From Candidatus Levybacteria bacterium RIFCSPHIGHO2_01_FULL_40_16 (GTDB lineage: Bacteria; Patescibacteriota; Microgenomatia; Levybacterales; UBA12049): a stretch of DNA of 64,000 bases. The notes below the pieces were generated by a model. That model had not been told where the DNA came from and ran no database searches. It worked only from the letters and a program-made list of their open reading frames with translations. The translations under genes were made by a program, and so were the position numbers. Location of the stretch: the NCBI GenBank assembly GCA_001783805.1, contig MFNS01000001.1, forward strand, positions 257,074 to 321,073, read 5' to 3'. Position 1 is the first letter of the stretch. Each line of letters opens with the position of its first letter. Below, piece by piece: positions 4,742 through 40,063 of the stretch.

Positions 4742-4762
4742 CAATGTAACAATTTAACAATT

Positions 4763-6649: not shown

Positions 6650-6658
6650 ATCGCAAGT

Positions 6659-6687
6659 TTGTGCAATATCCCGCGATATGGTAATAT
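6659..6687 (+). promoter_or_regulatory. sigma70-like promoter (-35 TTGTGC, 17-nt spacer, extended -10 TGgTAATAT)
   Basis: The hexamers and spacing were read directly. It lies 12 nt upstream of the ATG at 6700, implying a near-leaderless mRNA. Confidence 0.3.
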
Positions 6688-6699
6688 GTTTTCCGCCCT

Positions 6700-7227: not shown

Positions 7228-7230
7228 TCT

Positions 7231-9630
7231 CTAGGGAGTTGGCGTTAACGTTATTGTTGGGATAGGAGTATCAGTTGGTGTTGGAGTCGGAGTCGCATCG
7301 GGAATAATTCTAGTTGATGTTTCGGTTGGGGGATGATATTGCGAATCGTCTTTGTGATTATCCGCAACCCATTGATCAATTCCTTCCTGCCAGCGGTTTT
7401 TTCCGTCCGTAGATACCGGGTCATCTTCGTGAAAAACAATAAATTTCTTGGTGTCATATTCATTGTGGTCAATTTCGCTCTGGCTGGCAATTTTATTACT
7501 GTCTTTTGAGACTTTAATTGTTTTATAGATTATGCTTGGCCCTTGTGGTTCTGTTCCTTTAATAAAATATTCCGAACGGGTTGACTGACCGTCAACAGGC
7601 AGCCCTCCGCCAAGAGCATCTATTGTGACTGCAATAACATCGTCAGGTTTTACAAAATTTTCAGAAGGTTTATTCCTCAAAGCCTCCAGGATTATCCGTC
7701 TCCAAATCGGCGCTGCTCCCGTTACTCCGGACGCAACCTGACCCATCGGACTGTTATCATTATTTCCAACCCATGTTGCCACCAAAACGCTTGGCGTCCA
7801 GCCGATTGTCCAGTTATCTCTTTTGTCATCGGTTGTTCCGGTTTTTACCGCGATCGTCTGCCCTGACACATTCAGATAACTGTTCACGCCGAAAGTAATT
7901 AGACGGGCATTATTATCCAAAAGCATATGGGAAATAATAAACGCAACTTCCGGACTAAGTACCTGCTTTTTGCTTACTTCTTTTTGCTCAAATAAAACTT
8001 TTCCCTTCGGATCCGTAACTTTGAGAATTGCAACCGGCTCGCTCTTAAAACCCTGATTTGCAAAGGCAGTGTAAGCTGCGGCTAATTCGAGTGGCCTCAC
8101 CTCTCCTCCTCCCAACGTTAAGGACAAGCCAAAACGGTTTACGTTGTCATTTGTTGGAGCAAGTGTACTTATTCCCATGTTATAAGCCGTAGTTAACATA
8201 TTTTTAATTCCAACCATCCCCAGTAATTTCACTGCAGGCATATTTATTGAACTACCCAGTGCGAACCTTAGCTGAAGAGGCCCGTGAAATTTTCCATCAT
8301 AGTTTTTGGGGACGTAATCCTTTTCCTGTCCGCCGCCCGGGAAGGCAGTTGGCGCGTCCATTATTAAAGTTGACGCAGTGTACCCTTTTTCCAGTGCCGT
8401 AGCATAAGTAATGGGCTTAATTGATGAACCGGGCTGGCGCAGCGCCTGGGTTATTACGTTGAATTGTCCGCCTTTTAACGGAGCATTTGTTTTTTTGTCC
8501 GGTTCTTCGAAAAAATCCCGACTTCCGACCATTGCGAGAATTTCTCCATTCTTGGGATCTAGGACAACGCTCGCGCCATTTCCAACCAGAAGGCTTCTAG
8601 CGTTTTGCACTTCTTCTTTAACAATTTCCTCTGCTTTTTCTTCTAATTTATAATCCAGCGTTGTTGTTACCTGCAGTCCCCCTTGTTCCACCACATTTTC
8701 ACCAAACTGTTTTACTAATAAGTCTCTAACATAAAAAGAAAAATGCGGAGCTTTTATTGCCTGTGTTTCCTTCAAAAAGTCAACATTTGGCAATCTCTTT
8801 ATCGTATCCAATTCCTGTTTTTTGGTAATATAACCATCCTCCTGCATTCTCCGCAATACTTCTTTGCTTCTCTCAATATATGCTTTCGAATTCTGTCCGT
8901 ATGGAGAGAAATAAGATGGTCTTTGGGGAAGACCTGCCATGATTACCGATTCCAGTAGGTCTAAATCTTTTGCCTTTTTTCCAAAATACCTTTCCGCTGC
9001 CGCCTCGACCCCAACTGCCGTTCCACCATAAGGAGTCGCATTGAGATATAGTTCAAGAATCTGATTTTTTGTATAATTTCTGTCAACCTGAATCGCCAAA
9101 ATAAATTCTTTAACTTTACGGGCAATGGTTTGCTCGGAAGTTAAGAGGGTATTTTTAACTAACTGTTGAGTTAAAGTTGAACCTCCGCCGGCTATTCTTC
9201 GGCTTAATATTGCATTCCTGAACGCCCTCAAATAACCCGTAATTGAAAACCCTTGATTTTTATAAAAATCCTTATCCTCTATCGCAATTGTTGCCTCCTG
9301 CAGAGTTTTTGGAATTTGGTCCAAAGCTATGTAGGTGCGATTTTGGTCTTTAAAGATATCGTAAAGTAAGATTCCGTTTCGATCGAAAATTTTCGTAGAT
9401 TGAGAAAAATTACTGGCTGACAATTTTCCGGGCGTTGGTAAATCGCGGCTAAACCAAATAAACATTATGAATGCAACTGCAAAAAGCCCAACCAGACCAA
9501 AGAAAGCTAGTTTGGCAATTTTACTGTAAAGATAGATGTTCGAAGGGTACCTAAGTCGTCGTCTGGATCTCCAATATCTTCCAAAGAAAACCATGAATAG
9601 ATTATATACCACTCCGCTTTGAATTTGCAA
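7231..9630 (-). CDS. penicillin-binding protein 1A (bifunctional transglycosylase/transpeptidase)
   Basis: N-terminal TM segment, GT51 motifs (EDKDFYKNQG, GGSTLTQQLVKN, RKVKEFILA), transpeptidase motifs (SSIKP, SGN, KTGTT) and a Pro/Thr-rich C-terminal tail (TPTPTPTDTPIPTITLTPTP). Confidence 0.85.
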   Translation of the reverse strand: MQIQSGVVYNLFMVFFGRYWRSRRRLRYPSNIYLYSKIAKLAFFGLVGLFAVAFIMFIWFSRDLPTPGKLSASNFSQSTKIFDRNGILLYDIFKDQNRTYIALDQIPKTLQEATIAIEDKDFYKNQGFSITGYLRAFRNAILSRRIAGGGSTLTQQLVKNTLLTSEQTIARKVKEFILAIQVDRNYTKNQILELYLNATPYGGTAVGVEAAAERYFGKKAKDLDLLESVIMAGLPQRPSYFSPYGQNSKAYIERSKEVLRRMQEDGYITKKQELDTIKRLPNVDFLKETQAIKAPHFSFYVRDLLVKQFGENVVEQGGLQVTTTLDYKLEEKAEEIVKEEVQNARSLLVGNGASVVLDPKNGEILAMVGSRDFFEEPDKKTNAPLKGGQFNVITQALRQPGSSIKPITYATALEKGYTASTLIMDAPTAFPGGGQEKDYVPKNYDGKFHGPLQLRFALGSSINMPAVKLLGMVGIKNMLTTAYNMGISTLAPTNDNVNRFGLSLTLGGGEVRPLELAAAYTAFANQGFKSEPVAILKVTDPKGKVLFEQKEVSKKQVLSPEVAFIISHMLLDNNARLITFGVNSYLNVSGQTIAVKTGTTDDKRDNWTIGWTPSVLVATWVGNNDNSPMGQVASGVTGAAPIWRRIILEALRNKPSENFVKPDDVIAVTIDALGGGLPVDGQSTRSEYFIKGTEPQGPSIIYKTIKVSKDSNKIASQSEIDHNEYDTKKFIVFHEDDPVSTDGKNRWQEGIDQWVADNHKDDSQYHPPTETSTRIIPDATPTPTPTDTPIPTITLTPTP

Positions 9631-15601: not shown

Positions 15602-16300
15602 ATGAAGATTTCGATTCTTACTCTTTTTCCCGAAATGTTTTCCGGCCCCTTTGATCATTCGATTGTTAAAAAAGCAAAAGAGAAAAAATTGGTTGATGTA
15701 AATTTTGTCAATATTAGAGACTTCGGCGTGGGTCCGCATAAAATTGTTGATGACAAATCATATGGAGGCGGACATGGCATGATTTTGAGAGTTGATGTTT
15801 TAGAAAAAGCGATTACGCAAACAAAAAATAAAAATCTCGGTATCTTGGAACAAAAAGTTGTTCTCTTAAGCCCACACGGAAAAACTTTTAACCAAAGAAA
15901 AGCTTTAGAATTTGCAAGCCTTAAACATCTTATTCTTGTTTGCGGTCATTACGAAGGAATTGATGAAAGGATAAAAAAGTTCATTGACGAAGAGTTATCT
16001 ATTGGGGATTTTATAGTTACAGGAGGAGAAATTCCCGCAATGCTTGTAACCGATGCCGTAGCAAGACTTGTAAAAGGGGTTTTGAAAGAAGGAGTAACTT
16101 CTACCGAATCGTTTTCTGAAATTCTTGAATATCCGCAATACACAAAACCCAATAACTACAAAACCCTTGCTGTGCCATCCATACTATTAAGCGGAAATCA
16201 TGAAAAAATAAAATCTTGGCGCGATAAAATTTCGCATAGGACAACTGAAAAACTGCGTCCTGATTTGCTCCGGTCAAATCGAAGTTTACTGGGACGCTGA
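15602..16300 (+). CDS. trmD: tRNA (guanine37-N1)-methyltransferase
   Basis: MKISILTLFPEMF, GGGHGM and a SPOUT-family C-terminus. The ORF track starts 24 nt earlier. Confidence 0.9.
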   Translation: MKISILTLFPEMFSGPFDHSIVKKAKEKKLVDVNFVNIRDFGVGPHKIVDDKSYGGGHGMILRVDVLEKAITQTKNKNLGILEQKVVLLSPHGKTFNQRKALEFASLKHLILVCGHYEGIDERIKKFIDEELSIGDFIVTGGEIPAMLVTDAVARLVKGVLKEGVTSTESFSEILEYPQYTKPNNYKTLAVPSILLSGNHEKIKSWRDKISHRTTEKLRPDLLRSNRSLLGR

Positions 16301-16954
16301 TGATACATTTTCAAATTTACTCAGTTGATCAACCAGGTCCAATCCTTTTTGAGATATAGAGCTGATACGAATATCTTGACTATAATTAGAAGCGCCTAAT
16401 GGCTTGTAATAGAAAGACAAACTTACCATCGAAGATGCGTTTCCCATTTTGACAGAATAAACTTCCGATAGGGGAACTGTTTTACTGATGGTTTCGACAA
16501 AACTATTTATCGCTGTAATCGAAGAGCTGATGGGTACGGACAATCTGACGACCGGAAAATTTTCATCACTTTCAGATTGAGCGAGATCACCTATTTTTAA
16601 CGAAAAACCCCCAAGATTAACACCGGTTTTTTGGGCAGTAGAATAAACGGAATTTAATATTTCAATAAAATCTTTATTTAAAGGTAATGCCAAATTTAAT
16701 ATCCGAAGCTGCGAATCAAGTGTCTCCTCATTGATATTGGTAAGCATATCTAGATTTTCCTTTAATATCTCAAGTTTTAACGACGATTCCCTGGTTTCTT
16801 TTATTGTTCTAAGCAATGCGTTAAACTGTGGAATTACAAATTGAAAAAAAAGTATTATAGAAACGAGTATTGTAACAACCGGAAATATGTAGGACTTGTT
16901 CTTATTAAAGATAAATTTTAAAGCTTTTAAATCTGCGTTTATTTTCTCGTTCAT
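16286..16954 (-). CDS. PilO-like type IV pilus inner-membrane assembly protein
   Basis: Single N-terminal TM segment followed by a coiled-coil-rich periplasmic domain, immediately downstream of pilN in the operon. Confidence 0.45.
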   Translation of the reverse strand: MNEKINADLKALKFIFNKNKSYIFPVVTILVSIILFFQFVIPQFNALLRTIKETRESSLKLEILKENLDMLTNINEETLDSQLRILNLALPLNKDFIEILNSVYSTAQKTGVNLGGFSLKIGDLAQSESDENFPVVRLSVPISSSITAINSFVETISKTVPLSEVYSVKMGNASSMVSLSFYYKPLGASNYSQDIRISSISQKGLDLVDQLSKFENVSSASQ

Positions 16955-16955
16955 A

Positions 16956-17489
16956 TCATAACTCCGACATTACTGAAATCCGATAAGCATTTGTACTCAC
17001 ATCCAAAGCCAAAGAACTGAGGGTTAAGGATTTAATTATTTCTTTATTGTGGACCATGTTTGTTAGGTTATCTATGAATTCACCGATTGCGAAAAGGGAT
17101 TTTGATTGACCGGCAATAATAACTGATTTGTCATCCACCTCAAAATCGTCTACGGATAGTTCGCTAGGTATTTTTGCCAACAGTCCATTCATTGTCTTTA
17201 TTAGATCCTTTCTCATTTTTAAAATTTTGTCAATATTTTCTATCCTATTATTTAAAACAAAAAGCTTGACTTGTCGGTTTTGAAATTGCGACACTCCTTT
17301 TAGAACATTTTCCTGTTCCCTCTTGATAGCTCCGGGATTGATAATTTGAATCCATATGAAAAGACTCAGGGAGATCAAGCCAACACCTATTAAAGATACG
17401 GCCGCGGCAAGGTTAAGAATTCTAATTTCTTTTTTCTTCTTTAACGATTCCTTGTCTGTACGTAAAAGAAGGTTAATATTTGCATTCAT
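16956..17489 (-). CDS. pilN: type IV pilus assembly protein PilN
   Basis: N-terminal INLL motif, a single TM segment, and a position directly after pilM. Confidence 0.6.
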   Translation of the reverse strand: MNANINLLLRTDKESLKKKKEIRILNLAAAVSLIGVGLISLSLFIWIQIINPGAIKREQENVLKGVSQFQNRQVKLFVLNNRIENIDKILKMRKDLIKTMNGLLAKIPSELSVDDFEVDDKSVIIAGQSKSLFAIGEFIDNLTNMVHNKEIIKSLTLSSLALDVSTNAYRISVMSEL

Positions 17490-18517
17490 AAATCTCTCAT
17501 TGCAAGACCCAATGCGATAGTAAAATCAGAAGCATTGTTGAGTATTTCGGAGGGCAAAGGTTTGCCTCCAAAAATTTTCCACGGGTTTGCGACAACTGTC
17601 TCTATACCTAAATTCTCTGCAAAAAATAGATCGATTCCCGGCAAGCGGGCAGTACCTCCCGACAGTAATATCTGCTGAATTATTGAATCATCTTTATATT
17701 TTTGAGAATAAAAAGCTAAGGCTTTCCTTATCTCTAAGAGAATTGAAGAGAGGATTGGCTCAGTAGACTTGCCAACTTTTTGACCGGCTCCTACCTTTGA
17801 AAAACCATAGGTTTTCTTATATTCTTCTGATTGGGCTGGAGTTATTCCGAAATCTGCCTCTATTGACCTACTAATTGCATCTCCTCCCGTTCGTATTGAA
17901 TAGGTTAAAATCAAAATTCCATCTCTGATTATAGCTAAGGACGTGTTGATCGCACCTATACTCACAATTATTGTTGGGGGAAGATCCGCAGAAACTAAGG
18001 CTCGAACAATTGCCAAAGTCTCTGTTTCTATTGAATTTAAAGTAAGATTTGCCATCTGCAATATTCTTTGATATTTGCCAATAAGATTCGTTGGCGCCCC
18101 CACCATCAGAACCTGCATCTTTTCATCGCTAGAGGAGTTAAGAGGTTTCTTCAGGACGTTCCAAACCAAAGTTATCGTTGATAGCGCAACCGGGATATGG
18201 CGTTCGGCTTCCCAATAAATCGCTAAGGACAATTCCTTGTCGGACAAAACCGGCATTTCTATAACTTTTGTATAGACTTGATTATCGGAAAGCGCAATAT
18301 TTACGCTTCTACTGTTAGTTTTTAAACCGTCCACTGTCTTTCTTATGGTCTGGGCCATTTCCCTCTCGTCAATTGGCGCTTCCGAAAGCATCCCTTTGGG
18401 GGGAGAAGACATTACGCTAAAGCTATCCAAAATAAGATTATTATTCTGCCGCGATAGGGATACTGCTTTAATTTTAGTTAAACCTATATCCAGGCCAATC
18501 GACTTATTAAATATCAT
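17486..18517 (-). CDS. pilM: type IV pilus assembly ATPase-like protein PilM
   Basis: Actin/FtsA-like fold motifs (GLDIGLTKIKAV, LSGGTARLPGI). Confidence 0.8.
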   Translation of the reverse strand: MIFNKSIGLDIGLTKIKAVSLSRQNNNLILDSFSVMSSPPKGMLSEAPIDEREMAQTIRKTVDGLKTNSRSVNIALSDNQVYTKVIEMPVLSDKELSLAIYWEAERHIPVALSTITLVWNVLKKPLNSSSDEKMQVLMVGAPTNLIGKYQRILQMANLTLNSIETETLAIVRALVSADLPPTIIVSIGAINTSLAIIRDGILILTYSIRTGGDAISRSIEADFGITPAQSEEYKKTYGFSKVGAGQKVGKSTEPILSSILLEIRKALAFYSQKYKDDSIIQQILLSGGTARLPGIDLFFAENLGIETVVANPWKIFGGKPLPSEILNNASDFTIALGLAMRDL

Positions 18518-18527
18518 CTGTTAGAAA

Positions 18528-19325
18528 CTAGTTAGCTACAAAAAGACCATATGATAGATAAGGCAGATAAGTCTGCGGATATCCCTTAAATACCCTGATT
18601 GTACGATTTGCTTGTCCTGATACTCCGGTTGAATCAATGCGGTACCCTTGGGTTGGAAAGGGTAAGGTTCCGCTAATTCCAACCGCTGTATTTCCATAAA
18701 TAGGTATAATTCTTGCAATCAAAGCTGAAGAGACGCCTGCAATAGTCGTTCCATGAGAGAATGTTTTTCCGCTCACATTTCCCCCATTGATAGACGGAGC
18801 TGAAAATTTATTTTCATTTTGTCTTGCTGGACAAGGATCATAGGCATATTTTTTTAATACCGGATTGTTTTTTGGTCCCGATACAATTATTATCTCAAGT
18901 GCAGAATTATCGCAGGGTGTTGTGGAATCACCCCAATACACGGTCAAATCTCCACCCCATAAAGGAGCCCCAAAATTAGATAACGGATCGGCGGAGTATG
19001 TAGATAGCCAAAGGTCAGCTCCTTCATCCTTTGGAACTGCAAGTCCTCCATTTAATAAAATCTGAGCACCATCAATTGTTTGAAATGTAGTCGTATATCG
19101 AGAGTTATTGCTTGGATTTTCTCCACTTAAGCCTATCGGAACAGTATTCTGTATTGCGCGTTCTATGCCTGCCTCCGCAGCAGCTAAGGCCTTTTGAGAT
19201 TCTACTTCTTCGGTTGTACTTCTAAGACTCGTAATACTTCTTGAGGCGAGAGACAATCCAATGGTCGACGCAACAATAACTACCAGCACTACAATTAAAA
19301 GAATCTGCCCTTTTTGTTTCTCCAT
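18528..19325 (-). CDS. PilX N-terminal domain pilus protein (minor pilin-like)
   Basis: KGQILLIVVLVVIVASTIGLSLAS hydrophobic start followed by ALAAAEAGIERA, typical of the PilX_N family. Confidence 0.5.
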   Translation of the reverse strand: MEKQKGQILLIVVLVVIVASTIGLSLASRSITSLRSTTEEVESQKALAAAEAGIERAIQNTVPIGLSGENPSNNSRYTTTFQTIDGAQILLNGGLAVPKDEGADLWLSTYSADPLSNFGAPLWGGDLTVYWGDSTTPCDNSALEIIIVSGPKNNPVLKKYAYDPCPARQNENKFSAPSINGGNVSGKTFSHGTTIAGVSSALIARIIPIYGNTAVGISGTLPFPTQGYRIDSTGVSGQANRTIRVFKGYPQTYLPYLSYGLFVAN

Positions 19326-21152: not shown

Positions 21153-23141
21153 TTATGGCCTGTAGATGCTCACATGTGTTGCTTCGTTGCCGGCATCTGA
21201 TACCCAATAATAAACCGTATAGTGCATGAAGATAATCTGCGGGCACCCATTCACGAAATCGTTGATCAGATATTGATAATGATAGCTGGCTCCTGGCCCC
21301 AGTGTTAGCGGGAACGATGTTATCAGAAACGGATCATAAGTTATGCCGGAAGTTTCACTATGAGACTGCGACCAGAAGGTTATGGTATGGGTTGCCGATA
21401 CTGCATTATTGTTCTTTATGTCAACGTTATAATTAGGCGTCCAGTAGGCAGGCGCGCTTACACATACTTCTGCGCTGACTGTAGGATTACTAAACGCGAA
21501 TGGCGAGGAGGGTGCCGGTGTAGGAGTTGCTGTGGGAAGAGGAGTTGGGGTTGAGGTGGGAATAGACGTTGGCGTTGGGGTTGGATTCAATTTGATACCA
21601 AAGTTAACAGCGGCATTAGGACCAACCGAAGGAGTAAATGAAGTGGCAGTAGTAGCGGAATATCCGCTTGGCACACTTAATGAGACAGTGTAACTTCCCG
21701 AAACCGCATTCCAAACGTACTGACCGGAGGAATTGGTAGTTGCGGAAGAGGGCGTTCCGGGAGCAGAGATTGAAACAGTTGCTCCTCCTGAATAGCCCAA
21801 TTCTCCTCCGTCCTGTATCGCATTTCCATTTGAGTCTACAAATACGGTAGTTGTAATGGCGTATACGGGAACGCCGTTATAAAGGCTGGCTATTTCTGCT
21901 GACGACAACGCCCGGTTGTAAATGCGCACATCATCAATTTTTCCATTTATTGAATTGCCTCCGCCCGTATACGAGTCGCTGAAAGATCCTAGGAAAAATT
22001 TTGTCGCCGCAGTGCTTAAATTGCCGCTCTGATTATCTAAATCTTCCTGTATTCCATCCACATAAATTATTTGACTGGTTCCGTTATACGTAGCGGCAAA
22101 CTGATGAAACGCTCCGTCAGACCATTTTCCCGACGTTGTTAAACTACTAATTACCGCTGACGTTGTTCTACTTCTGTACTGAATGTTACCGCCTCCTACA
22201 TTCATATCCATGCTTATTGAACCTGCGCCATCCGATAATGGAAAACCAAAGACAACCCCTGAATCATTCGCATTTATTTGTATCCACATCATCACAGTCC
22301 AGGCATTTGTAAGTCCCAAATTATACGGAATCTGTATGTAATTACTGTCATTAAAACTGTATGCTTGTCCGATTTGACCAGCGACCAAGCTGGGAAGAGG
22401 ACTTCCGCCAAGAGTACCATTATTTCCATTAAAAGAATCATTAGCGTTGCCGTCGAATTTCCACCAGCCCACCAGACCGGGTATTGGGGTTGGGGTGGGG
22501 GTTGCGGTGGGAATAGGCGTTGGGGTTGGGGTAAGAATAGGCGTTGGCGTTGGGGTGGGAGCAGATGTTGGAGTCGAAAAGGGAGTAACGGTAGGACTAG
22601 GTATTGAAGTCGGAAGCGGAGTTGCGGTAGGAATTGTGGTAGGAATAGGCGTTGGCAACGACAATTGCACGTTAACTCTTCCCAGAGAATCAATTACAAT
22701 AAATCTTTGTTGACCATATCCGGAAAGCACAATGATATTGTCGGAACCCTGAGTTCCACCGGTTATTGTGGGAAAAAAAATAGTTTTACCAACACTGCCG
22801 GCATCAAAACTTACACCTCTCGGAAGAGTTTTTGTCGAAAGCGGCGGACCATTGATTCCGGAACCGGAACAACGACTCACTAAAGTATAGCTCGTATTCG
22901 AAACAATATTTACACCATATCCATCTAATGGATTGCATGCTCCGGAAGGCTTTATCTGCGATTGCGCGCGCGACTTGGCCAGATTCAACATCGTAACCAC
23001 CTCGTTGGTGGAAGTTTGCAGGACTTGAACTTGATTGTAATTTGCGAATCCTCCAATGCCCAATGTTCCCAAAACAGCTGTGATGCCTACTACAACCATT
23101 AGCTCAATGAGAGTAAAACCTTTTTGGAAAAATTTTTTCAT
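21153..23141 (-). CDS. large multidomain pseudopilin/adhesin-like protein (GspH/FimT-like pilin N-terminus, LamG lectin-like, CnaB/SdrD-like and novel C-terminal domains)
   Basis: [14 protein letters not shown] prepilin signal. Two TPTPTP linkers. A LamG-type block ([11 protein letters not shown]...[20 protein letters not shown]). A CnaB-like block ([30 protein letters not shown]). A C-terminal module shared with the 24697-26037 protein. Confidence 0.65.
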
Positions 23142-24162: not shown

Positions 24163-24647
24163 GGACTCACATTCGGACTCGAAACCCCATAATTACAAAT
24201 GATGCTTCCGCTTGCACAAGCATTTGTCGGTATACCATTTGTTCCCAGGCTCGTACAAGCATTGCCCAGGTTGCACGCCTGCGGATCATTTCCACCCCTT
24301 TCCAGACTAGCATAAAGATAATAAGTTTGTCCATCGGAAGAAGAATAATACACATAATTTCTTGATGGAGATGCCGGATCTTTTGGCAAAGTACCCATGT
24401 AAGGCATCCAGGAAAGTCCCCATCCGATACCGGCAATTATGTAGCCGCTTGAATCAGGAAACTTTCCATAATCCTGATAATATGTCTCAAAAGCTCTCTG
24501 AATTTGAGCAAGATCAGATTTTCTTCTGGAATCGTTCGCTTTCTGAAATTGAGTCAGAGGATTTATGATGCTTATTATTGCCACTGCCAAAATTCCAATT
24601 ACGGCAATCACGATCAAAAGCTCTATCAAGGTAAACCCACGTCGCAT
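24159..24647 (-). CDS. type IV pilin (PilA/GspG-like)
   Basis: [24 protein letters not shown] with a short canonical leader, KSDLAQIQRAFETYY, and a Cys pair near the C-terminus. Confidence 0.7.
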   Translation of the reverse strand: MRRGFTLIELLIVIAVIGILAVAIISIINPLTQFQKANDSRRKSDLAQIQRAFETYYQDYGKFPDSSGYIIAGIGWGLSWMPYMGTLPKDPASPSRNYVYYSSSDGQTYYLYASLERGGNDPQACNLGNACTSLGTNGIPTNACASGSIICNYGVSSPNVSP

Positions 24648-24696: not shown

Positions 24697-26037
24697 TCAC
24701 GAGCCAGATCTGTAGAGTTCTGCTTTTGTTGAGTTGTTAGCGGCATCTGACACCCAATAGTAATACGTAGTGCTCAAGAATATAAGCGGATTGCAGTCAG
24801 TCATGATATTTACGAGCCAGTTATAATGATAACTCTCTCCGGGCCCCAGTGTCAGTGAGAACGACGTTATTGTATACGGAGAACTCATCGGTTGCCCGTC
24901 GCGCTGCCATTGCTGCCAGAAGGTTATGGTATGGGTTGCCGATACCGCATTGTTGTTCGTTATGTCAACGTTATAATTAGGCGTCCAGTAAATAGGGCCA
25001 TTTACGCATGACTGGGGACTGACCGTGGAATTGCTAAATGCGAATGGCGAGGTTGGAGTAGGGGTTGGGGTCGGCGTATTAGTTGGAATTGGCGTTGCAG
25101 TTGGAGTAGGTGTTGGCACAACAACCGTAATATCGGTATCCGTAGCTCCTGTAGATGGGCAAGTTCTTCCATCATTTAAATCCGCTGTCCCCCAGACGGC
25201 TGTCAGACCGGTTGCGACAGCAGTTGCCGTGGTCGAGTAAGGCGAGCTTGAATCGAAAGTGGGATTAACAGTAGCTATAGCAGTATTGTAAGAACCGAAA
25301 CGCATTTGATTTACTGTTGCCACTCCCAATCCCGAAGTAACACTAGCGGTGACCGTACTTGTTCCTCCGATAACCAAGGTTTGCGACGCGGGCGCAGTTG
25401 TGACTTGACAGGGCACTGGAGTTGGAGTGGGCGTTGAAGTAGGAACAAGAGTTGGGGTTGGTGTTGTAGGGGCAGGGGTTAATGTAGGAATTCCCGTAGG
25501 GGTAGGGGCGCCAAATGCGACAACCGAAGTATTGGTAGAAGTTATCGAATAGTTGTAACTATTACTCTTGCAAATTATATTAGGAATAGCCTGCGGGTCG
25601 GAATTTCTCTCAAGCTTGGCACTAAGTCTGAACGAGCTGCCGTCGCTTTCATAACAATAACTCTGTGCAACAAGCGGATCTTTGGGAAGTTTGGGCATAT
25701 AAACTCCTTCAATTTGCGTTAGATCGGCAGGGTAGCTATTGTTATCGTTATAATATGTGTCCAGGGCAGTTGCTATTTGCGAGAGGTTGTCTTTTCTTTG
25801 AGCATCATGGCTTTTCGCAAACTGCTCTATCGGATTTAAAACAAAAGCCAGCGAAGACGCCAAAACTCCAATTATGGCACCTGCAACCAAAAATTCAATT
25901 AGTGTAAAACCCGAAGGAAATTTTGAACGATAAAATTTCCGAAAAAAATTGACAATAAAGTTCCTGTGGCTAAAAAAGGTCCGAAGGGGATTACTGTTCC
26001 GAATGTCTCTCTCCTCTTCCATATAATTAGTATGCAT
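24697..26037 (-). CDS. large pilin-like protein with Pro/Thr-rich linkers and conserved C-terminal module; start uncertain because the leader overlaps pilD
   Basis: SGFTLIEFLVAGAIIGVLASS prepilin motif begins at about 25911. The 42 codons upstream lie inside the 3' end of pilD in another frame. The C-terminal 115 aa are about 50% identical to the C-terminus of the 21153-23141 protein. Confidence 0.6.
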   Translation of the reverse strand: MHTNYMEEERDIRNSNPLRTFFSHRNFIVNFFRKFYRSKFPSGFTLIEFLVAGAIIGVLASSLAFVLNPIEQFAKSHDAQRKDNLSQIATALDTYYNDNNSYPADLTQIEGVYMPKLPKDPLVAQSYCYESDGSSFRLSAKLERNSDPQAIPNIICKSNSYNYSITSTNTSVVAFGAPTPTGIPTLTPAPTTPTPTLVPTSTPTPTPVPCQVTTAPASQTLVIGGTSTVTASVTSGLGVATVNQMRFGSYNTAIATVNPTFDSSSPYSTTATAVATGLTAVWGTADLNDGRTCPSTGATDTDITVVVPTPTPTATPIPTNTPTPTPTPTSPFAFSNSTVSPQSCVNGPIYWTPNYNVDITNNNAVSATHTITFWQQWQRDGQPMSSPYTITSFSLTLGPGESYHYNWLVNIMTDCNPLIFLSTTYYYWVSDAANNSTKAELYRSGS

Positions 26038-26681
26038 CCCACAATTGCGCCTGTCAAGAATGCGATGTATAAGGCAACCACGATGTTCGGAAAACCCAAA
26101 ATTAGCCCCATTAGAAATGCGAATTTTACATCCCCAAATCCCATGCCTTTTCCCCTAGTCACAATGAGCAATGCTAGGAAAAACAAACCTGCCCCAAGGG
26201 CTGAGAGGAGATGGGGGGGTATTAAGTAGTAAGTATTAAGTATTAAGTATAGAAAAGAAATTATTATTGCAGGAAACACAATTTTGTCCGGAATAATACC
26301 ATATTTAAGGTCCGCAAAAAAAACCACAATCAAAGAGGAAGCAATAAATAAATAATATATAAGATTTATAATGTTTATAGTCGATATAAAATTTATATAT
26401 GCTCCTCCGATAAAAATAAAAACCCCGGCAAACAAAATCCCCGTTGTTAATTCAACAATCGGATAATAAAACGAAAGGGAAGTCCTACAGTAACGACATT
26501 TACCCTTGAGAAAAATAAAAGACAATAGGGGAATCAGATCAAACCAAGCCAATTCTTTTTTGCATTTCTCACAATGTGATCTTCCCTTAATCGCAGATTC
26601 TTCTTTTGGCAACCTGTCCGCCAAAACATTCAAAAAAGACCCAACAAAAAGCCCGAGAATAAAAATTAGCAATAAAACCAT
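25899..26681 (-). CDS. pilD: prepilin peptidase (A24 family)
   Basis: N-terminal CxxC...CxxC zinc-binding box, a polytopic membrane protein, and a GMGFGDVKF motif. Confidence 0.85.
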   Translation of the reverse strand: MVLLLIFILGLFVGSFLNVLADRLPKEESAIKGRSHCEKCKKELAWFDLIPLLSFIFLKGKCRYCRTSLSFYYPIVELTTGILFAGVFIFIGGAYINFISTINIINLIYYLFIASSLIVVFFADLKYGIIPDKIVFPAIIISFLYLILNTYYLIPPHLLSALGAGLFFLALLIVTRGKGMGFGDVKFAFLMGLILGFPNIVVALYIAFLTGAIVGCILIIWKRRETFGTVIPFGPFLATGTLLSIFFGNFIVQNFLRVLH

Positions 26682-26707: not shown

Positions 26708-27532
26708 TTATTTAAACGCCAATAGGTGTTTTATTAAGCCTTGGGCGTAGAGCTGTTGGATCTGGGAAAAAGTAAGAGCTTGCTTGTAAATGCGCACATC
26801 ATCAATCAGTCCATTAGCGTAATAACCTGAAAAAAATCCGATGTAAAGAGGTCCTGTTTTTGAATTTGGTAAACCTGTTTTCGCTATTGTATCAGCTATT
26901 TGTATCCTGCCATCAGCATACATTTTAGCATTATCTATATCATTTTGGCCATTTCCAGTAACTATAAACACAAGGTGATGCCAATTTCCGTCGGCTATAT
27001 TTACAGGATTGTGAAAAAAATATTTAAAGTTACCGGCTCCAAGATAGATTAAAGATCGTCCGGCTGTCCAAACTGGTAAAATAGCAGGAAGACCAGATGC
27101 TGAAAATGAAACTAATGGCCAATAAATTCCTGATTGCCACTTTATCCAAGCTTCAACGGTAAATACGTCCGGCTTTAAACTCGTCCTATTTCCCGCGTCA
27201 ATATACGCCGTTCCGTTAAAGTTACTTGCTTTATTTCTATTCCTCCTGTCTAATGCCGGGGTTACGTTAATCCCCATACCATTATTACCATTTCCTGAAG
27301 TATCTTTAAAAGTGCCATCATCAAATGTCCATTCTCCCACAAGATCAATAGCAAGATTGTTTTGTATTCCTGCCGAGAACGTCTCCGCCTTAGCAATATT
27401 GGCGGAATTAATCTTTCCTGCGGGATCTATGGCTACAAGCACTCCTGTTCCCAAAACTCCCACCACCGCTATCACTATGAGAAGTTCTATCAAGGTAAAG
27501 CCTTTCTTAAATTGTGCTTTCAATATCTTCAT
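26708..27532 (-). CDS. pilin-LamG (concanavalin A-like lectin) fusion protein, paralog 1
   Basis: [44 protein letters not shown], then a LamG-like domain ending in IDDVRIYKQALTFSQIQQLYAQGLIKHLLAFK. Confidence 0.7.
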   Translation of the reverse strand: MKILKAQFKKGFTLIELLIVIAVVGVLGTGVLVAIDPAGKINSANIAKAETFSAGIQNNLAIDLVGEWTFDDGTFKDTSGNGNNGMGINVTPALDRRNRNKASNFNGTAYIDAGNRTSLKPDVFTVEAWIKWQSGIYWPLVSFSASGLPAILPVWTAGRSLIYLGAGNFKYFFHNPVNIADGNWHHLVFIVTGNGQNDIDNAKMYADGRIQIADTIAKTGLPNSKTGPLYIGFFSGYYANGLIDDVRIYKQALTFSQIQQLYAQGLIKHLLAFK

Positions 27533-27558
27533 AATTTAATTAGATGTATTCCCTGGTA

Positions 27559-28398
27559 TTATTTAAACGCCAATAGGTGTTTTACTAAGCCTTGGGCATA
27601 GAGCTGTTGGATCTGGGAGAAAGTAAGAGCTTGTTTGTAAATCCGTACATCGTCGATAATCCCCTTAAATGAGGAGGTTCCACCGGAACTAATGCTGGAC
27701 ACGCCCGCAATGATATGCGATCCTGCTTGTTGAGTTACACTGTATCTCACTCCATTAACATAAAGTTTTGCCGTATTGGTGTCGGCATTATCGGTATAGG
27801 TTAAAACTAAGAAATACCAGGTATTTATGGAAGGATTCCAATTGATGTAATCGTTAGTGCTGCCAAAGTACAAGAAATTATTAGCGTAATGCTGATAAAA
27901 ATTATTGAACAAATGATTATGATTTCCCTTGTCTGATGCTGATTGATCCCAATAAAACCATCCTGTCTGAGTTTTTACTACGCCTGTCGCGGAAAAGTTT
28001 ATGTAAGCATCTGAACCATCAAAACTATATGCCTTGTTGGCTCTACCCCTTCTATCTGCTGTTAATGTAGCTCCTATTACCGTACCGTTATTCCTATATC
28101 CTGAGGTATCATTTGCATTGCCATCAAATGTCCATTCTCCGACCAGATCAATAGCGAGATTGTTGTTTATACTTGCTGCATATGTTTCCATATTAGCAAG
28201 CTTGGCGGAATTAATCTTTCCTGCCGGATCTATAGCTACAAGCACTCCAGTTCCTAAAACCCCCACTACCGCTATGACTATGAGAAGTTCGATAAGGGTA
28301 AACCCAGCACCACTTATAAAAACCTCCATTTGTTTTTTAAGTTCTTTTAATTCACGCAAGTGGTGCTGGGTAAACCCCCTTGACCAATGTTTTTCCAT
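27559..28398 (-). CDS. pilin-LamG fusion protein, paralog 2, with a 24-codon leader insertion
   Basis: MEKHWSRGFT-QHHLRELKELKKQMEVFISGAG-FTLIELLIVIAVVGVLGTGV... followed by the same conserved C-terminus. Confidence 0.7.
   Translation of the reverse strand: MEKHWSRGFTQHHLRELKELKKQMEVFISGAGFTLIELLIVIAVVGVLGTGVLVAIDPAGKINSAKLANMETYAASINNNLAIDLVGEWTFDGNANDTSGYRNNGTVIGATLTADRRGRANKAYSFDGSDAYINFSATGVVKTQTGWFYWDQSASDKGNHNHLFNNFYQHYANNFLYFGSTNDYINWNPSINTWYFLVLTYTDNADTNTAKLYVNGVRYSVTQQAGSHIIAGVSSISSGGTSSFKGIIDDVRIYKQALTFSQIQQLYAQGLVKHLLAFK
28306..28367. mobile_element. second copy of the 62-bp MITE-like element (same TIRs), with GGGTAAACCC duplications at 28296-28305 and 28368-28377
   Basis: The arms are identical to the copy at 24049-24110 and the internal 42 nt are similar (shared TTTTTTAAGTTCTTTTAATTCAC core). 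Confidence 0.6.
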
Positions 28399-28440
28399 AA
28401 ATTATCTCCTATGAAAATCATATACCAACATAAAGCATTA

Positions 28441-29250
28441 TTAAAGTATCAATAGATGCCTTATTAAGCCTTGCGCATAGAGTTGCTTGATTTGGGAGGA
28501 TAAAAGCGCAGATTTGTAAACCCGCACATCATCAATTACACCATAAAAATAGGAATACCTGTTACCAATCCAAAGAGAGTCTGATGTCGTACCCGCATTT
28601 ATCGTTTGAGTAACAGTTCCTCCATATTGTGAACCATCAACAAAAGCTCTTAAAAAGCTTCCGCTCCAAGTAAAGACTAAGTGATGCCAGACACCGATGG
28701 TAGGCTTGCCAAAACTAACACTATTGTATGGCACACCGTTGTCTATGCTGCCCTCTATAGCGGTTGTTGTGAATACGGTAATGGCATAGCCGGGTGTATC
28801 CCATCCCGCAGAAGCCCCTTTACTTACTATGGCGGGGTATGTTCCGGCGCTATAAGAGCTTATCTTAATCCAAACCTCAATTGTCCCAGCATTTGTTAAA
28901 TTCAAGCTTGCGCCATTTCCCGCATTAATAAACGCCGTTCCGTTAAAGTTGCTTGCTTTATTCCTATCCCTCCTGTCTAATGCCGAGGTTACGTTAATCC
29001 CCATACCATTATTACCATATCCTGAAGTATCTTTAAAAGTGTTATCATCAAATGTCCATTCTCCGACCAGATCAAAACCAAGAGAGTTTTGTATTCCTGC
29101 CGAGAACGTCTCCGCCTTAGCAATATTGGCAGAATTAATTTTTCCTGCCGGATCTATGGCTACAAGCACTCCGGTTCCCAAAACTCCCACCACCGCTATG
29201 ACTATGAGAAGTTCGATAAGAGTAAAACCCCTTACTAAAATTATTTTCAT
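28441..29250 (-). CDS. pilin-LamG fusion protein, paralog 3
   Basis: [28 protein letters not shown]..., IDDVRVYKSALLSSQIKQLYAQGLIRHLLIL. Confidence 0.7.
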   Translation of the reverse strand: MKIILVRGFTLIELLIVIAVVGVLGTGVLVAIDPAGKINSANIAKAETFSAGIQNSLGFDLVGEWTFDDNTFKDTSGYGNNGMGINVTSALDRRDRNKASNFNGTAFINAGNGASLNLTNAGTIEVWIKISSYSAGTYPAIVSKGASAGWDTPGYAITVFTTTAIEGSIDNGVPYNSVSFGKPTIGVWHHLVFTWSGSFLRAFVDGSQYGGTVTQTINAGTTSDSLWIGNRYSYFYGVIDDVRVYKSALLSSQIKQLYAQGLIRHLLIL

Positions 29251-29254
29251 AAGA

Positions 29255-30106
29255 TCATCTAAATGCCAACAAATGTTTTACTAAGCCTTGGGCGTAAAGC
29301 TGTTTGATCTGGGAGGATAAAAGAGTAGCCTTATAAATCCGCACATCATCAATGGAGCCAGTGAAATAGTCCGCGCCTCTCCACCAACCAACTGCATATC
29401 CAATTCTAAATGCGTTTCCTCCGCTGTCTGCAAATCCTGCTGTTCCATTATTCGCTCGTTTATCCAATACGCCATCTATATAAATTGAATCAGTAATACC
29501 TGCCCTTGTAATCGCAATATGATGCCAGTTTGTGTTAGGTACTGCAGAAATACTGATAGATTGTCTATATGAACCACCACCATCCGTATACTGGAATTCA
29601 AGCTTGTTGCCAGTCTGCATAGTTAAAGCCCACTGATAATTACCTTTTCCCCATATTCCATTTTCTACGCCGAGCTGGTTGAGCTTAATCCATCCCTCAA
29701 TTGTAATCGCATTAGTAATATTCAAATTCGCCCCACTTCCTGTATTTATATAGCCCGAGCCAGCAAGGCTGTACGCTTTACTACCCCTATTTCTTCTATC
29801 TGGTGCTAGAGCTACACCGCTTCCTACTATTGAAGTTATATTTTCATATCCCGAAGTATCATTTGCATTACCGTCAAATGTCCATTCTCCGACCAGATCA
29901 AAAGCGAGATTGTTTTGCACACTTGCCGAGAAGGTTTCCGCCTTAGCAATATTGGCAGAATTAATTTTTCCTGCCGGGTCTATAGCTACAAGCACTCCGG
30001 TTCCCAAAACTCCCACCACTGCTATGACTATTAAAAGCTCAATAAGGGTGAAGCCTTTGGATCGAATAGCGAATAATGAATTATGAATAACGGTTTTTAT
30101 ATATAT
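29255..30106 (-). CDS. pilin-LamG fusion protein, paralog 4, with no ATG start (non-AUG start or pseudogene)
   Basis: The open frame reads [35 protein letters not shown]... from a TAG stop at 30107-30109. Candidate starts are ATT/ATA only. The ORF track begins at the internal Met at 30019. Confidence 0.5.
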   Translation of the reverse strand: MYIKTVIHNSLFAIRSKGFTLIELLIVIAVVGVLGTGVLVAIDPAGKINSANIAKAETFSASVQNNLAFDLVGEWTFDGNANDTSGYENITSIVGSGVALAPDRRNRGSKAYSLAGSGYINTGSGANLNITNAITIEGWIKLNQLGVENGIWGKGNYQWALTMQTGNKLEFQYTDGGGSYRQSISISAVPNTNWHHIAITRAGITDSIYIDGVLDKRANNGTAGFADSGGNAFRIGYAVGWWRGADYFTGSIDDVRIYKATLLSSQIKQLYAQGLVKHLLAFR

Positions 30107-30181: not shown

Positions 30182-31462
30182 TTATTTACGCGGATAACAT
30201 TGCTGGCAAAAAATAGTATCCGTATTATTAAACCTATAGAGCGAAAACGAGTATAGCCTGACATCATAGCTTCGAGGAACCTTAATTCCAACAAGCAACG
30301 GGTAATAAATTGCAAAAATGATTATACTGACCAATATTGTAGACGCAAGTAACTGCAATTTTATTTTTGTTTTCCGGATTAATAGTAAAAACATTATTAT
30401 TGCCATGGGAATAAGCGGGATAATATAATAGTAAAAAGTTGCATGTAGATTAAAAAACCACGGTAAATAAAGCAGGGAAAACACCATAACAAGAAAGCTT
30501 TGCTTTTTTTGTTTTAATATTCCTTTCCGCAAAATGAAAATCATAGATGCAACTAAAGAGATTAGGGTAAAAATTGTTATAAGTGGATTTGCAAATGCAA
30601 TAATAGACATTACGCTCTCTCCTTGTGGAACTCGATAAAGAGTTAATATCTGCGGGATTGTGAACCATGTCCAGGCAGGCGAGTGAAGATAACCAGACAG
30701 ATTAATTACCCCTCCAATTTGAGAATTGAATAATCGATATATAAATTCTGCAAATCCAATACTGGTCTTCTTAAAAAAGAAGATACCATTGCCAATGGTA
30801 AAGGCTAGGGAAAGAAAAGTTAGAAATAAGAAATTAATTTTTGCAATTTCTCGCAATTTTAGATTTTTCCCCTGATTAAAAATCATGAACAATAAAGGAA
30901 AAAGGGGAATGAGTAAAACAGCTGACAATTTCGCTGCAAGAGATAATCCTAAGAAAATTCCGCTGACGTAAAAAAGCTTAAGTTTTTTCCCATCAAGATA
31001 TTTTAAATAATAATATATGCTGGACAGCAAAAAGAACAATGCGGGAATATCCAGCTGCAATAATCGGCTAAAAGTGAAGAACATAGGGTCAATGGCAAGC
31101 AAGATAACGCAAAGGAAAGATATAGTCTTAGAAAAAAAGACCCGGGCAATTTTATAAAAGACTAGAAGTGATCCAATGGAAAAAAGAATAGTTCCAAGTC
31201 TATAAAATATAGGTTTATATATTCCGGTTATCCCGGAAAATATATATACGAAATAATACCAGATTGTTTTCGCTAGAAGAGGATGATTATTATTGTCAAT
31301 TTTTCCGTCTAATAAAGAAAAAACACTTGACCTATACACTTTTTCATCACCAACTAAAAGCCCAATTGAGTTTATGTTGTAAGCTAAAAGGAATAGATAA
31401 AGCAAAAATAAAACTATAATAATAGAAAGAAGATTTCTTTTAATAATCAATTTAAAATCCAT
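30182..31462 (-). CDS. GT-C fold PMT/ArnT-like (GT39/GT83-type) polytopic glycosyltransferase
   Basis: At least 10 predicted TM segments, a first-loop GDEKVY acidic motif and an HPLLAK motif resembling the GT39 HPPL box. It lies immediately downstream of the candidate major pilin gene. Confidence 0.5.
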   Translation of the reverse strand: MDFKLIIKRNLLSIIIVLFLLYLFLLAYNINSIGLLVGDEKVYRSSVFSLLDGKIDNNNHPLLAKTIWYYFVYIFSGITGIYKPIFYRLGTILFSIGSLLVFYKIARVFFSKTISFLCVILLAIDPMFFTFSRLLQLDIPALFFLLSSIYYYLKYLDGKKLKLFYVSGIFLGLSLAAKLSAVLLIPLFPLLFMIFNQGKNLKLREIAKINFLFLTFLSLAFTIGNGIFFFKKTSIGFAEFIYRLFNSQIGGVINLSGYLHSPAWTWFTIPQILTLYRVPQGESVMSIIAFANPLITIFTLISLVASMIFILRKGILKQKKQSFLVMVFSLLYLPWFFNLHATFYYYIIPLIPMAIIMFLLLIRKTKIKLQLLASTILVSIIIFAIYYPLLVGIKVPRSYDVRLYSFSLYRFNNTDTIFCQQCYPRK

Positions 31463-31526
31463 ATTAAAGCGATTTTCTCATTTTCCTAAAAATTAACAAT
31501 ACAAGGGGATAGAGAAGTTCCAATCT

Positions 31527-31997
31527 TTACGGACAGGTTGTTTGAGCGGCAACAGCAGTGATGGAAGTTTTGAAAACAGCGTTAGTAGAATCCCAGCACC
31601 AAAATGATCTTGTAGTCGGACTGAATAACGCTCCCCACACTGCAACATTTTGTCCTGCAACTCCGGTGTAGCAGTAGTTTGTAGAGTCAGCGCCAGCTGC
31701 AGTTACACAACCGAGATTGCCAGATTGCTGATTAGGCAAGACCTTTAATTCTCCAGGTACAAGAGACGACAACGCAACTGGATAAATAGGCGCAGGCTGC
31801 GCTGTATAATATGCCTGCAAAGCGCTGACTAGTTGACTCATGTCGCTTTTGATTGTTGAATCCTTGGCTGAATTAATTTTTGCAACAGGATTAATGGCTG
31901 CGATAACTGCTGCTGCCAAAACTCCCAAGACTGCAATGACGACCAGAAGTTCGATTAGGGTGAAGCCTTTGTGGGAAGATTTATTAAATAATTTCAT
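31527..31997 (-). CDS. pilA: type IV pilin, candidate major pilin
   Basis: [37 protein letters not shown], about 150-aa mature protein adjacent to pilC. The ORF track extends to 32075. Confidence 0.6.
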   Translation of the reverse strand: MKLFNKSSHKGFTLIELLVVIAVLGVLAAAVIAAINPVAKINSAKDSTIKSDMSQLVSALQAYYTAQPAPIYPVALSSLVPGELKVLPNQQSGNLGCVTAAGADSTNYCYTGVAGQNVAVWGALFSPTTRSFWCWDSTNAVFKTSITAVAAQTTCP

Positions 31998-32071
31998 GTT
32001 CTTAATTAGTAAAACAGAAAAATAAATGCTTGTCAAGTGGCAAAATAGCCTCAATTTTCTTTTACTCATTT

Positions 32072-33289
32072 TCATTTTATTGATGAAGTGATTTGATAGA
32101 TTGGCGTGATTATAGAGAATATCAGAAATGCAACTCCAACGCCTAGCACCACCAAGATAAATGGTTCCATTGCGGTTGAAAGGGTCTTCACGGATTGATC
32201 AACTTCGTTTTCAAAATATTCAGATGCTTTAGCGAGTGTCTCATCCAATTTTCCCGTCTGCTCTCCGATCTTAACCAGCTCTATCAAATTGAGAGGGAAA
32301 AGATAATACAGGCTCATCGCATCTCCAATACTTATTCCTTTTTCCACCCTTTTTGAGACATCCACAATTGCATTTTTATAATGAATATTACCGGTAATAT
32401 CGGACACTTTATCCAAAGCCTCAACTACCAATGTCCCCGATGCCAACAGGGCACCAAGAGTTCTGGAAAATTCTGCCAAGATTGTTTTTTTTATCAGACT
32501 GCCAAAAATAGGAAGTTTCAATTTCATACTATCTATAGTAAGCTTACCCTCCATTGTTTTGTACCAGCGTTGGTATGCAAGCCAGACGAGAACCAAGAAC
32601 GCTATGACGATAAACCAAAATGAAACAAAGAAATTTGAAATTTTTATCAGGATGAGTGTTGGCAACGGTAAAGAAATGTTCATGCTCTGGTAAAGTATGG
32701 AAATTTGAGGAATAACAAAAATCATCATTATAAAAACTACAATCGCCATCATGAGAATAACGATTACCGGATATGTAAGCGCGCCCCTGATCGTATTTTT
32801 CAGTCTTTGCTGTTTTTCCAAAGTATCAGCCAGTCGCAAAAAGGCCTTATCCAAAAGACCGGATCCTTCAGATGCTTCTACCAACGCTATATAAACCGGA
32901 GAAAAGACTGTAGGATGCTTTGCAATTGCGCGGGAAAAACTTGACCCTTCCTGAATATCCCTGATAATGCCGTCTATAATGTCTATCAAAGTGTGATTTT
33001 CGATTTGATTTTTTAATATCTCCAGACTTCTTAAAAGAGTGAGTCCCGAACTAAGCATCGAAGACAATTGTCTGGTAAAATTAAGCACTTCTTGAGACCT
33101 AACTCTATCTCCAAGAAAGGGTATTAAATTTACAAATCTGTTTTTCCCCCTTTTAATTATCTCTATCGGAGTGAGCTCTTTGCTTCTAAGATACGCTGCT
33201 GCTTCGCTTGGGTTTCTTGCTTCGATTATTCCACTAATTGGTTCTCCTTTATCGGTTACAGCTTTGTAGTACAGTCTCATATTAGCCAA
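32072..33289 (-). CDS. pilC: type IV pilus platform protein PilC (GspF family)
   Basis: Two GspF-type repeats with three TM segments; it overlaps pilT by 8 nt and the pilin gene by 4 nt. Confidence 0.85.
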   Translation of the reverse strand: MANMRLYYKAVTDKGEPISGIIEARNPSEAAAYLRSKELTPIEIIKRGKNRFVNLIPFLGDRVRSQEVLNFTRQLSSMLSSGLTLLRSLEILKNQIENHTLIDIIDGIIRDIQEGSSFSRAIAKHPTVFSPVYIALVEASEGSGLLDKAFLRLADTLEKQQRLKNTIRGALTYPVIVILMMAIVVFIMMIFVIPQISILYQSMNISLPLPTLILIKISNFFVSFWFIVIAFLVLVWLAYQRWYKTMEGKLTIDSMKLKLPIFGSLIKKTILAEFSRTLGALLASGTLVVEALDKVSDITGNIHYKNAIVDVSKRVEKGISIGDAMSLYYLFPLNLIELVKIGEQTGKLDETLAKASEYFENEVDQSVKTLSTAMEPFILVVLGVGVAFLIFSIITPIYQITSSIK

Positions 33290-40060: not shown

Positions 40061-40063
40061 TTT

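Follow-up and report, generated by a model that had tools for sequence, protein, structure and literature searches.

In a 64,000-nucleotide stretch of the genome of a groundwater bacterium, Candidatus Levybacteria bacterium RIFCSPHIGHO2_01_FULL_40_16 (contig MFNS01000001.1; hereafter, the window), the gene directly after the major-type pilin of a type IV pilus operon encodes a 426-residue membrane protein that GenBank labels a hypothetical protein (OGH24997.1, OGH46548.1). This protein is a compact, full-length member of the protein O-mannosyltransferase (PMT, family GT39) lineage of GT-C glycosyltransferases. We favor the reading, at a probability of about 0.6, that it is a catalytically competent, minimal enzyme of this lineage, kept as an accessory of the type IV pilus operon, and that its likeliest acceptors are the neighboring pilins. 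The analysis establishes the family, fold, conserved catalytic positions, topology and linkage to pilus genes; the acceptor, sugar and lipid carrier are inferred. The interval 30182–32075, flagged by an initial annotation of this DNA, comprises two genes:

30182..31462, minus strand: compact PMT (GT39)-type GT-C glycosyltransferase, 426 residues, polytopic (open reading frame and Pfam).
31527..32075, minus strand: major-type type IV pilin, directly upstream of the glycosyltransferase (N_methyl and TIGR02532 matches, GFTLIE class III signal).

The placement of the enzyme immediately downstream of the pilin, as first annotated, is confirmed: the two genes are separated by 64 nt on the same strand, and no terminator-like site was found between them. 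The pilin probably starts at M27 of its reading frame (position 31997), giving a 156-residue prepilin with the leader MKLFNKSSHKG preceding FTLIE.

The initial annotation assigned the enzyme to the PMT-like GT-C glycosyltransferases from two motifs, LLVGDEKVY (containing D39/E40) and NNNHPLLAK (residues 57–65; H60–K65). Both are present in the reading frame, and the assignment holds in a profile search, with matches to Pfam PMT_2 (PF13231; E=2.6e-15, 57.4 bits, gathering cut-off 26.1) and PMT (PF02366; E=2.5e-11, 44.1 bits, gathering cut-off 22.7). As both scores exceed their cut-offs, the motifs are not chance occurrences. These were the only Pfam matches with E≤1, a range in which no Wzy_C signal appeared, and the Pfam PMT_4TMC model did not detect the C-terminal half of the protein. 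The sole NCBIfam match, to Agl23, was far below threshold (E=0.0012; 17.9 bits, cut-off 126) and was disregarded. A phmmer search of the PDB with the single sequence returned no matches; yeast Pmt1 (E=5e-8) and Pmt2 were reached only by a profile of the family alignment. Profile–profile comparison (hhalign) with bacterial proteins that carry both PMT and PMT_4TMC domains gave a probability of 99.8% over 379 columns (residues 23–410), and intermediate relatives recovered in an exhaustive search bear a PMT_4TMC domain. Thus, the protein is a full-length compact member of PMT/GT39, and more than a generic GT-C protein. Its AlphaFold model, a confident one (pLDDT 92.6, pTM 0.93), has Pmt4 and Pmt2 as best Foldseek matches, with TMq values of 0.76 and 0.73, respectively.

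The transmembrane (TM) helices were read from this model, and the two amphipathic helices of the first loop were placed outside, as in PMTs. In the resulting topology, 11 TM segments, among them the C-terminal four-TM module (PMT_4TMC), lead from a cytoplasmic N-terminus to an outer C-terminus. Lysine and arginine are distributed accordingly, with 20 in the 61 cytoplasmic residues and 17 in the 202 outer residues, and each short cytoplasmic loop holds 2–5 of them. Both the positive-inside rule and homology place D39/E40 outside, in the first extracytoplasmic loop where the initial annotation had put the acidic motif, and not in the cytoplasm. D138, K178, H340, the C-terminal CxxC tail and a hairpin in the fourth external loop (EL4) are likewise predicted to face outward. 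The outside loop after TM7 (residues 230–292) is composed of one helix and a β-hairpin, with no MIR domain.

The active-site positions were compared across 29 aligned sequences, consisting of the 426-residue protein and 28 full-length homologs (P0002–P0029, 28–68% identity), one of which (P0020) is recorded as “Patescibacteria group bacterium”. D39/E40 align with D77/E78 of yeast Pmt1 (Asp in 27 and Glu in 28 sequences), and H60-P61...K65 aligns with the Pmt1 HPPLAK motif, with the His and Pro invariant and the Lys present in 27. R88, at the start of TM2, is equivalent to Pmt1 R138 and is invariant, while D138 in EL2 aligns with Pmt1 D189 (22 Asp, 7 Glu). In EL5, H340 and F343 correspond to R671 and Y674 of the Pmt2 Rx2Y/F motif; the first position is His in 20 sequences, Arg in 8 and Thr in 1, so that it is basic in 28 of 29, and the second is Tyr in 28 and Phe in 1. 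Overall, D39, E40, R88, D/E138, K178 and T342 are kept in 27–29 of the 29 sequences, down to 28% identity, which indicates selection on the active site.

The M. tuberculosis enzyme MtPMT provides a functional reference for these positions. Its DE motif is D74/E75, its EL2 Asp is D176 and its EL5 motif is R441/Y444; four of these residues, D74, D176, R441 and Y444, have been shown to be indispensable (PMC12331936). The R441K variant remains active, and imidazole partly rescues R441A (PMC12331936); by this analogy, an active enzyme could plausibly have a His at position 340. The loop after TM7 contains an invariant or near-invariant module, S261-P-x-W-x-W266-F267...P270-Q271...R277...N292-P293, that includes the β-hairpin and aligns with the “SPAWSW” region of bacterial PMTs. 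Judged by the residue spacing given in PMC12331936 rather than by an aligned MtPMT sequence, it probably corresponds to the WW-like module in the C-terminal part of EL4 (EL4Cter), which in MtPMT is implicated in recognition of Pro-rich Ser/Thr peptides (PMC12331936). The outside-facing C-terminal tail (residues 392–426; 30182–30290, minus strand) is specific to the family and ends in FCQxC(S/Y)PR. Every one of the 29 sequences has both of its cysteines, C419 and C422, and more distant relatives of ~400 residues align only to about profile position 400, and hence lack the CxxC tail.

The genetic setting of the enzyme is one long minus-strand type IV pilus operon. Besides the glycosyltransferase and the major-type pilin, it contains the following genes, all on the minus strand:

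34353–36125: pilB, extension ATPase (reading frame, orthologs); pilB-pilT-pilC form the head of the operon.
33282–34349: pilT, retraction ATPase (reading frame, orthologs).
32072–33289: pilC, platform protein (reading frame, orthologs).
26708..30067: four tandem paralogous LamG (Laminin_G_3) pilins (Pfam and sequence similarity).
25899..26681: prepilin peptidase PilD (sequence; 32–42% identical to A24 peptidase genes in L001, L008, L009 and L011).
24697..26037: 446-residue pilin with two Thr/Pro-rich linkers, a candidate acceptor (N_methyl and T2SSG matches).
24159–24647: small pilin (GFTLIE signal).
23617–24162: small pilin (GFTLIE signal).
23138–23644: small pilin (N_methyl match, GFTLIE signal).
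21153..23141: 662-residue pilin with LamG and SdrD_B domains and Thr/Pro-rich linkers, a candidate acceptor (Pfam).
18528–19325: PilX_N protein (Pfam PilX_N), in the distal part of the operon (16286..19325).
17486–18517: PilM (Pfam PilM_2), distal part.
16956–17489: PilN-like protein (weak Pfam PilN), distal part.
Within 16286..19325: 222-residue reading frame, distal part.

Pfam was run on two of the LamG pilins (29255–30019 and 28441–29250), with matches to Laminin_G_3 and N_methyl, and the other two were assigned by sequence similarity. The N-terminal helices of all four (~30 residues) are nearly identical. The first (29255–30067) has an in-frame KGFTLIELL signal with no ATG, GTG or TTG ahead of it, and may use an ATT start at 30067 or have a mutated start codon. 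Two pilins (27559–28398 and 23617–24162) have long leaders with a degenerate GFTQHH..ELK.LK segment ~25 residues before the true GFTLIELL cleavage motif, which looks like a duplicated, decayed signal. Between the 662-residue pilin and the PilX_N gene lies a 152-residue reading frame (20615–21073) with sub-threshold cupredoxin-like Pfam matches (Cupredoxin_1, 21.9 bits, cut-off 27; Copper-bind, 18.0 bits, cut-off 21.2).

The association with pilus genes recurs in relatives. Contigs with homologs (loci L001–L015) were labeled by precomputed Pfam matches, by blastp against the pilus proteins of the window and by the class III signal pattern. In the core clade (37–68% identity), the glycosyltransferase is near pilus genes in 8 of 10 informative loci, arranged as follows:

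Window, L001/L002, L007, L009, L014: glycosyltransferase directly after a pilin orthologous to that of the window.
L006: next to pilB-pilT-pilC and convergent with the orthologous pilin.
L008: flanked by pilD and by a series of pilins.
L011: on the opposite strand, with pilD on one side and a pilin on the other.
L004, L005: no pilus genes in view.

The adjacent orthologous pilins of L001, L007 and L006 are 33–37% identical in alignment; in L009, pilin genes similar to that of the window were found beside the enzyme by blastp, and in L014 an N_methyl pilin lies upstream. Orthologs of pilC, pilT and pilB (39–62% identity) occur in the same order in L001, L006, L007, L009 and L011, with precomputed T2SSE/T2SSF Pfam matches in L001, L006 and L007. 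As the position and orientation of the glycosyltransferase within these loci vary, the linkage appears to be maintained rather than a result of frozen synteny. Its placement by the major pilin, kept in relatives, suggests that the enzyme probably glycosylates pilus proteins.

Several of these loci have further features. The L011 homolog (5740–7275) is antisense to the surrounding pilus genes, with a reading frame that overlaps pilD and a short pilin reading frame; the record is labeled “uncultured Gammaproteobacteria”, yet the locus shares its holB-pilB-pilT-pilC arrangement with the Levybacteria window. A GT-C protein of the YfhO family (703–724 residues) directly follows the homolog within the pilus operon of L001 (9260–11371) and is its divergent neighbor in L005 (3622–5796), so that some relatives hold two GT-C enzymes together. 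In a deeper clade (28–30% identity; L003, L012, P0029), the gene follows a sigma-54 response regulator and pilin-like genes are 4–6 kb away, which is weaker evidence for linkage. L003 also encodes a second, larger PMT_2 protein (672 residues; 4357–6375) between a pseudopilin cluster and the sigma-54 regulator that precedes the homolog. Still more distant relatives of ~400 residues, P0050 and P0052, are embedded among genes of the PF18895 “T4SS_pilin” family (VirB2-like, TSGGDxKA motif), an association seen in two loci, the only informative contigs of that tier. L013 (4784–8555, P0050) contains three T4SS_pilin genes with nearby GT2, DUF2304 and GT2 genes that resemble a set for donor synthesis and flipping, and L015 (5492–10782, P0052) contains ten T4SS_pilin genes around the relative.

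The adjacent major pilin is the acceptor with the best syntenic support. GT39 enzymes are known to act on Pro-rich Ser/Thr stretches and on Thr/Pro-linker proteins (PMC12331936, PMC6151902), a preference that other proteins of the window would also fit. The initial annotation reported Thr/Pro linkers in several proteins of the locus and in the neighboring penicillin-binding protein PBP1A. The tracts are real, although within the locus they are confined to two pilins, the 446-residue (residues 183–211 and 307–335) and the 662-residue (residues 161–212 and 518–548) proteins, and the tail of PBP1A is also Thr/Pro-rich (residues 777–799, at the C-terminus):

7231..9630, minus strand: PBP1A, transglycosylase and transpeptidase, a possible acceptor outside the pilus (Pfam Transgly, Transpeptidase).

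The two large pilins end in a common domain of ~110 residues (SPFAFSN.TVS...[24 protein letters not shown]...YYWVSDA), which follows the last TP linker and has no Pfam match.

GT39 enzymes are characterized by transfer of mannose from polyprenyl- or dolichyl-phosphate-mannose to protein Ser/Thr residues. A mechanism can be proposed by analogy with PMTs and with the three-component scheme of GT-C systems (PMC11127046, PMC12331936). On the cytoplasmic side of the membrane, a polyprenyl-monophosphate sugar would be formed; after its flipping to the outer face, D39 of EL1 would act as the catalytic base and D138 (EL2), K178 and H340/F343 (EL5) would bind the phosphate and the acceptor. Single sugars would be transferred, with inversion, to Ser/Thr residues of proteins outside the membrane. 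The pilins encoded around the enzyme would be the likeliest acceptors, among them the major pilin next to it and, in this genome, the large minor pilins that bear Thr/Pro linkers. Before pilus assembly, prepilins would be held in the membrane by their N-terminal helix with globular and linker parts outside, and would thus be presented to the enzyme at the right place.

A DegT/DnrJ/EryC1 sugar aminotransferase gene followed by a small cupin gene (38894–40435, plus strand) is located at a distance of 2.8 kb from pilB; its neighbors include a Mur-ligase-like gene, an α/β hydrolase gene and a FemAB gene. The pair resembles FdtB/FdtA-type genes of amino-sugar synthesis, and could supply an amino-sugar for the wall or a glycan.

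Several observations weigh against the assignment of an active, pilus-dedicated enzyme. Neither a GT2 polyprenyl-phosphate-sugar synthase (Ppm1/GtrB-like) nor a flippase of the GtrA or DUF2304 type was found among the scanned reading frames of at least 110 residues in the 64-kb window. Two core-clade homologs, those in L004 and L005, are not beside pilus genes. The EL5 Arg is replaced by His in the window protein and in 20 of the 29 family members, a difference from characterized PMTs, and the closest homolog, P0002 (68% identity), has a Gly at the catalytic Asp position. Its motif, GGES instead of GDE, is the sole such case in the alignment and could reflect an inactive copy or a sequencing error. 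On the acceptor side, an alignment of the pilins adjacent to the glycosyltransferase homologs revealed no conserved Ser/Thr site, and among the homologous loci Thr/Pro-rich linkers recur in L011 only. The Thr/Pro tracts are thus plausible but non-defining acceptors, and not a conserved partner of the enzyme.

Alternatively, the enzyme could be a general protein O-glycosyltransferase, like mycobacterial PMT or the Caldicellulosiruptor GT39 enzyme, acting on any exported Pro-rich Ser/Thr protein; its location in the pilus operon would then stem from the abundance of pilins among its substrates and not from a dedicated pilin specificity. The MtPMT-like catalytic pocket and the conserved EL4 hairpin (PMC12331936), the Thr/Pro tail of PBP1A outside the pilus locus, and the two homologs remote from pilus loci are all compatible with this role, and in C. 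bescii glycosylation of Thr/Pro-linker enzymes depends on a GT39 enzyme (PMC6151902). Against it stand the pilus linkage in 8 of 10 loci despite rearrangements and the scarcity of the family, which looks accessory rather than housekeeping, and most of the homologous loci show no Thr/Pro linkers. We consider this explanation unlikely, though the likeliest of the alternatives. Less likely again is transfer to an acceptor other than protein. By analogy with ArnT, YfhO and Emb, this could be a lipid, a wall polymer or a glycopolymer resembling teichoic acid, and the enzyme might, for example, remodel the envelope at the site of pilus passage. Against this, protein O-mannosyltransferases are the top matches by sequence, by profile and by structure, and the PMT-specific R88 (R138 of Pmt1), the EL4 hairpin module and the [HR]x2Y motif are conserved.

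A degenerate GT-C protein without catalysis, with a structural or chaperone role in pilin insertion or assembly, could be invoked from the His in the Rx2Y motif, the Gly in P0002 and the lack of nearby donor-synthesis genes. The near-complete retention of D39, E40, R88, D/E138, K178 and T342, which signals selection on the active site, and of a basic residue at position 340 makes such a role very improbable. The preferred reading, a catalytically competent PMT-lineage accessory acting on pilins, is that of O-glycosylated pili put forward in the initial annotation, and is supported as far as analysis of sequence and structure reaches.

The core family is rare: of 1.8 billion representatives, ~25 clusters (50% identity) score above 290 bits and 144 have E≤1e-30, and a profile from a tighter family alignment matched only 4 species-representative genomes; this rarity fits an accessory gene. 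Type IV pili are well conserved across the Candidate Phyla Radiation (CPR)/Patescibacteria, and those of cultivated Saccharibacteria drive host binding, competition and twitching motility (PMC12206443). The same study predicted pilin O-glycosylation from sequence only and named no enzyme (PMC12206443). We found no prior description of a PMT/GT39 enzyme tied to type IV pili or to Patescibacteria pilins in the searchable literature, which is incomplete and leaves such absence unproven. The enzyme described here, a PMT-type glycosyltransferase apparently recruited as an accessory of a pilus operon, with glycosylation predicted from sequence and model, offers a concrete candidate for pilus glycosylation in uncultivated lineages. 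If the prediction is true, the roles of GT39 would extend from glycosylation of secreted proteins to a filament-dedicated function, and a GT-C gene directly after pilA would have arisen at least twice, from different GT-C families. More tentatively, and with the odds somewhat against it, the CPR may contain a previously unrecognized family of minimal (~400–430 residues) PMT-type O-glycosyltransferases dedicated to surface-filament subunits, in which the clade of this gene, an accessory of type IV pilus operons, would glycosylate pilins, and sister clades within T4SS_pilin arrays would glycosylate T4SS_pilin subunits. Such a family would constitute a further, independent class of pilin-glycosylation enzymes beside the PglL/TfpO and TfpW types, and could modulate the filaments by which episymbiotic ultrasmall bacteria attach to their hosts.

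Among known pilin-modifying systems, the gene arrangement is shared by TfpW of Pseudomonas aeruginosa group IV pilin loci, with which the initial annotation had drawn a parallel. TfpW is a GT-C protein with 11 TM segments encoded immediately downstream of pilA; its first outside loop contains an acidic motif, and it modifies pilin Ser/Thr residues from a lipid-phosphate-linked monosaccharide donor (10.1101/2020.04.19.049825). The parallel stands for the genetic logic of a GT-C gene directly after pilA and for the general chemistry, but not for family membership. TfpW is an Emb-like D-arabinofuranosyltransferase of 646 residues with a large C-terminal periplasmic TPR domain and DDX and YX6PFX7P motifs (10.1101/2020.04.19.049825). 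Compared with this published description, the 426-residue enzyme has no DD anywhere (a single DE is present at residue 39), and no match to Y.{6}PF.{7}P; it also lacks the C-terminal TPR domain, and its fold is distant from the Emb type. The PglL/PilO (TfpO) enzymes also are membrane proteins that modify pilins, and the TfpO gene lies beside pilA; however, they are of the Wzy_C type, a different fold class that transfers a preassembled undecaprenyl-diphosphate-linked oligosaccharide en bloc, and the lack of a Wzy_C signal argues against membership. ArnT (GT83) and YfhO-type GT-C proteins, whose acceptors are lipid A or teichoic acids, were weaker matches than PMTs in all comparisons made.

The eukaryotic PMTs (yeast Pmt1/Pmt2 and Pmt4; PDB 6p25/6p2r, 9e61, 9i5k) share 14–19% identity with the enzyme, which is about half their size and lacks their MIR domain after TM7. 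This absence does not exclude it from the bacterial PMT branch, since bacterial proteins with PMT and PMT_4TMC domains (P0030–P0034) have no MIR in their precomputed Pfam lists. The closest counterparts are the bacterial GT39 enzymes (Rv1002c/MtPMT, the Pmt proteins of Streptomyces and Corynebacterium, and Cbes_1864 of C. bescii), which are homologous over the full length and likewise without MIR. Their topology, too, comprises 11 TM segments and an inside N-terminus, and they have the same EL1 and EL2 Asp residues, EL3 Lys, EL4 “SPAWSW” hairpin and EL5 basic-x2-aromatic motif (PMC12331936). The enzyme of the window is shorter, with 426 residues compared to 460–557 in the PMT+PMT_4TMC set and 556 in Cbes_1864. 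It further differs from them in the EL5 His in place of Arg, as in most family members, in the family-specific tail with its invariant CxxC, and in that its gene is part of a type IV pilus operon and not a stand-alone housekeeping gene.

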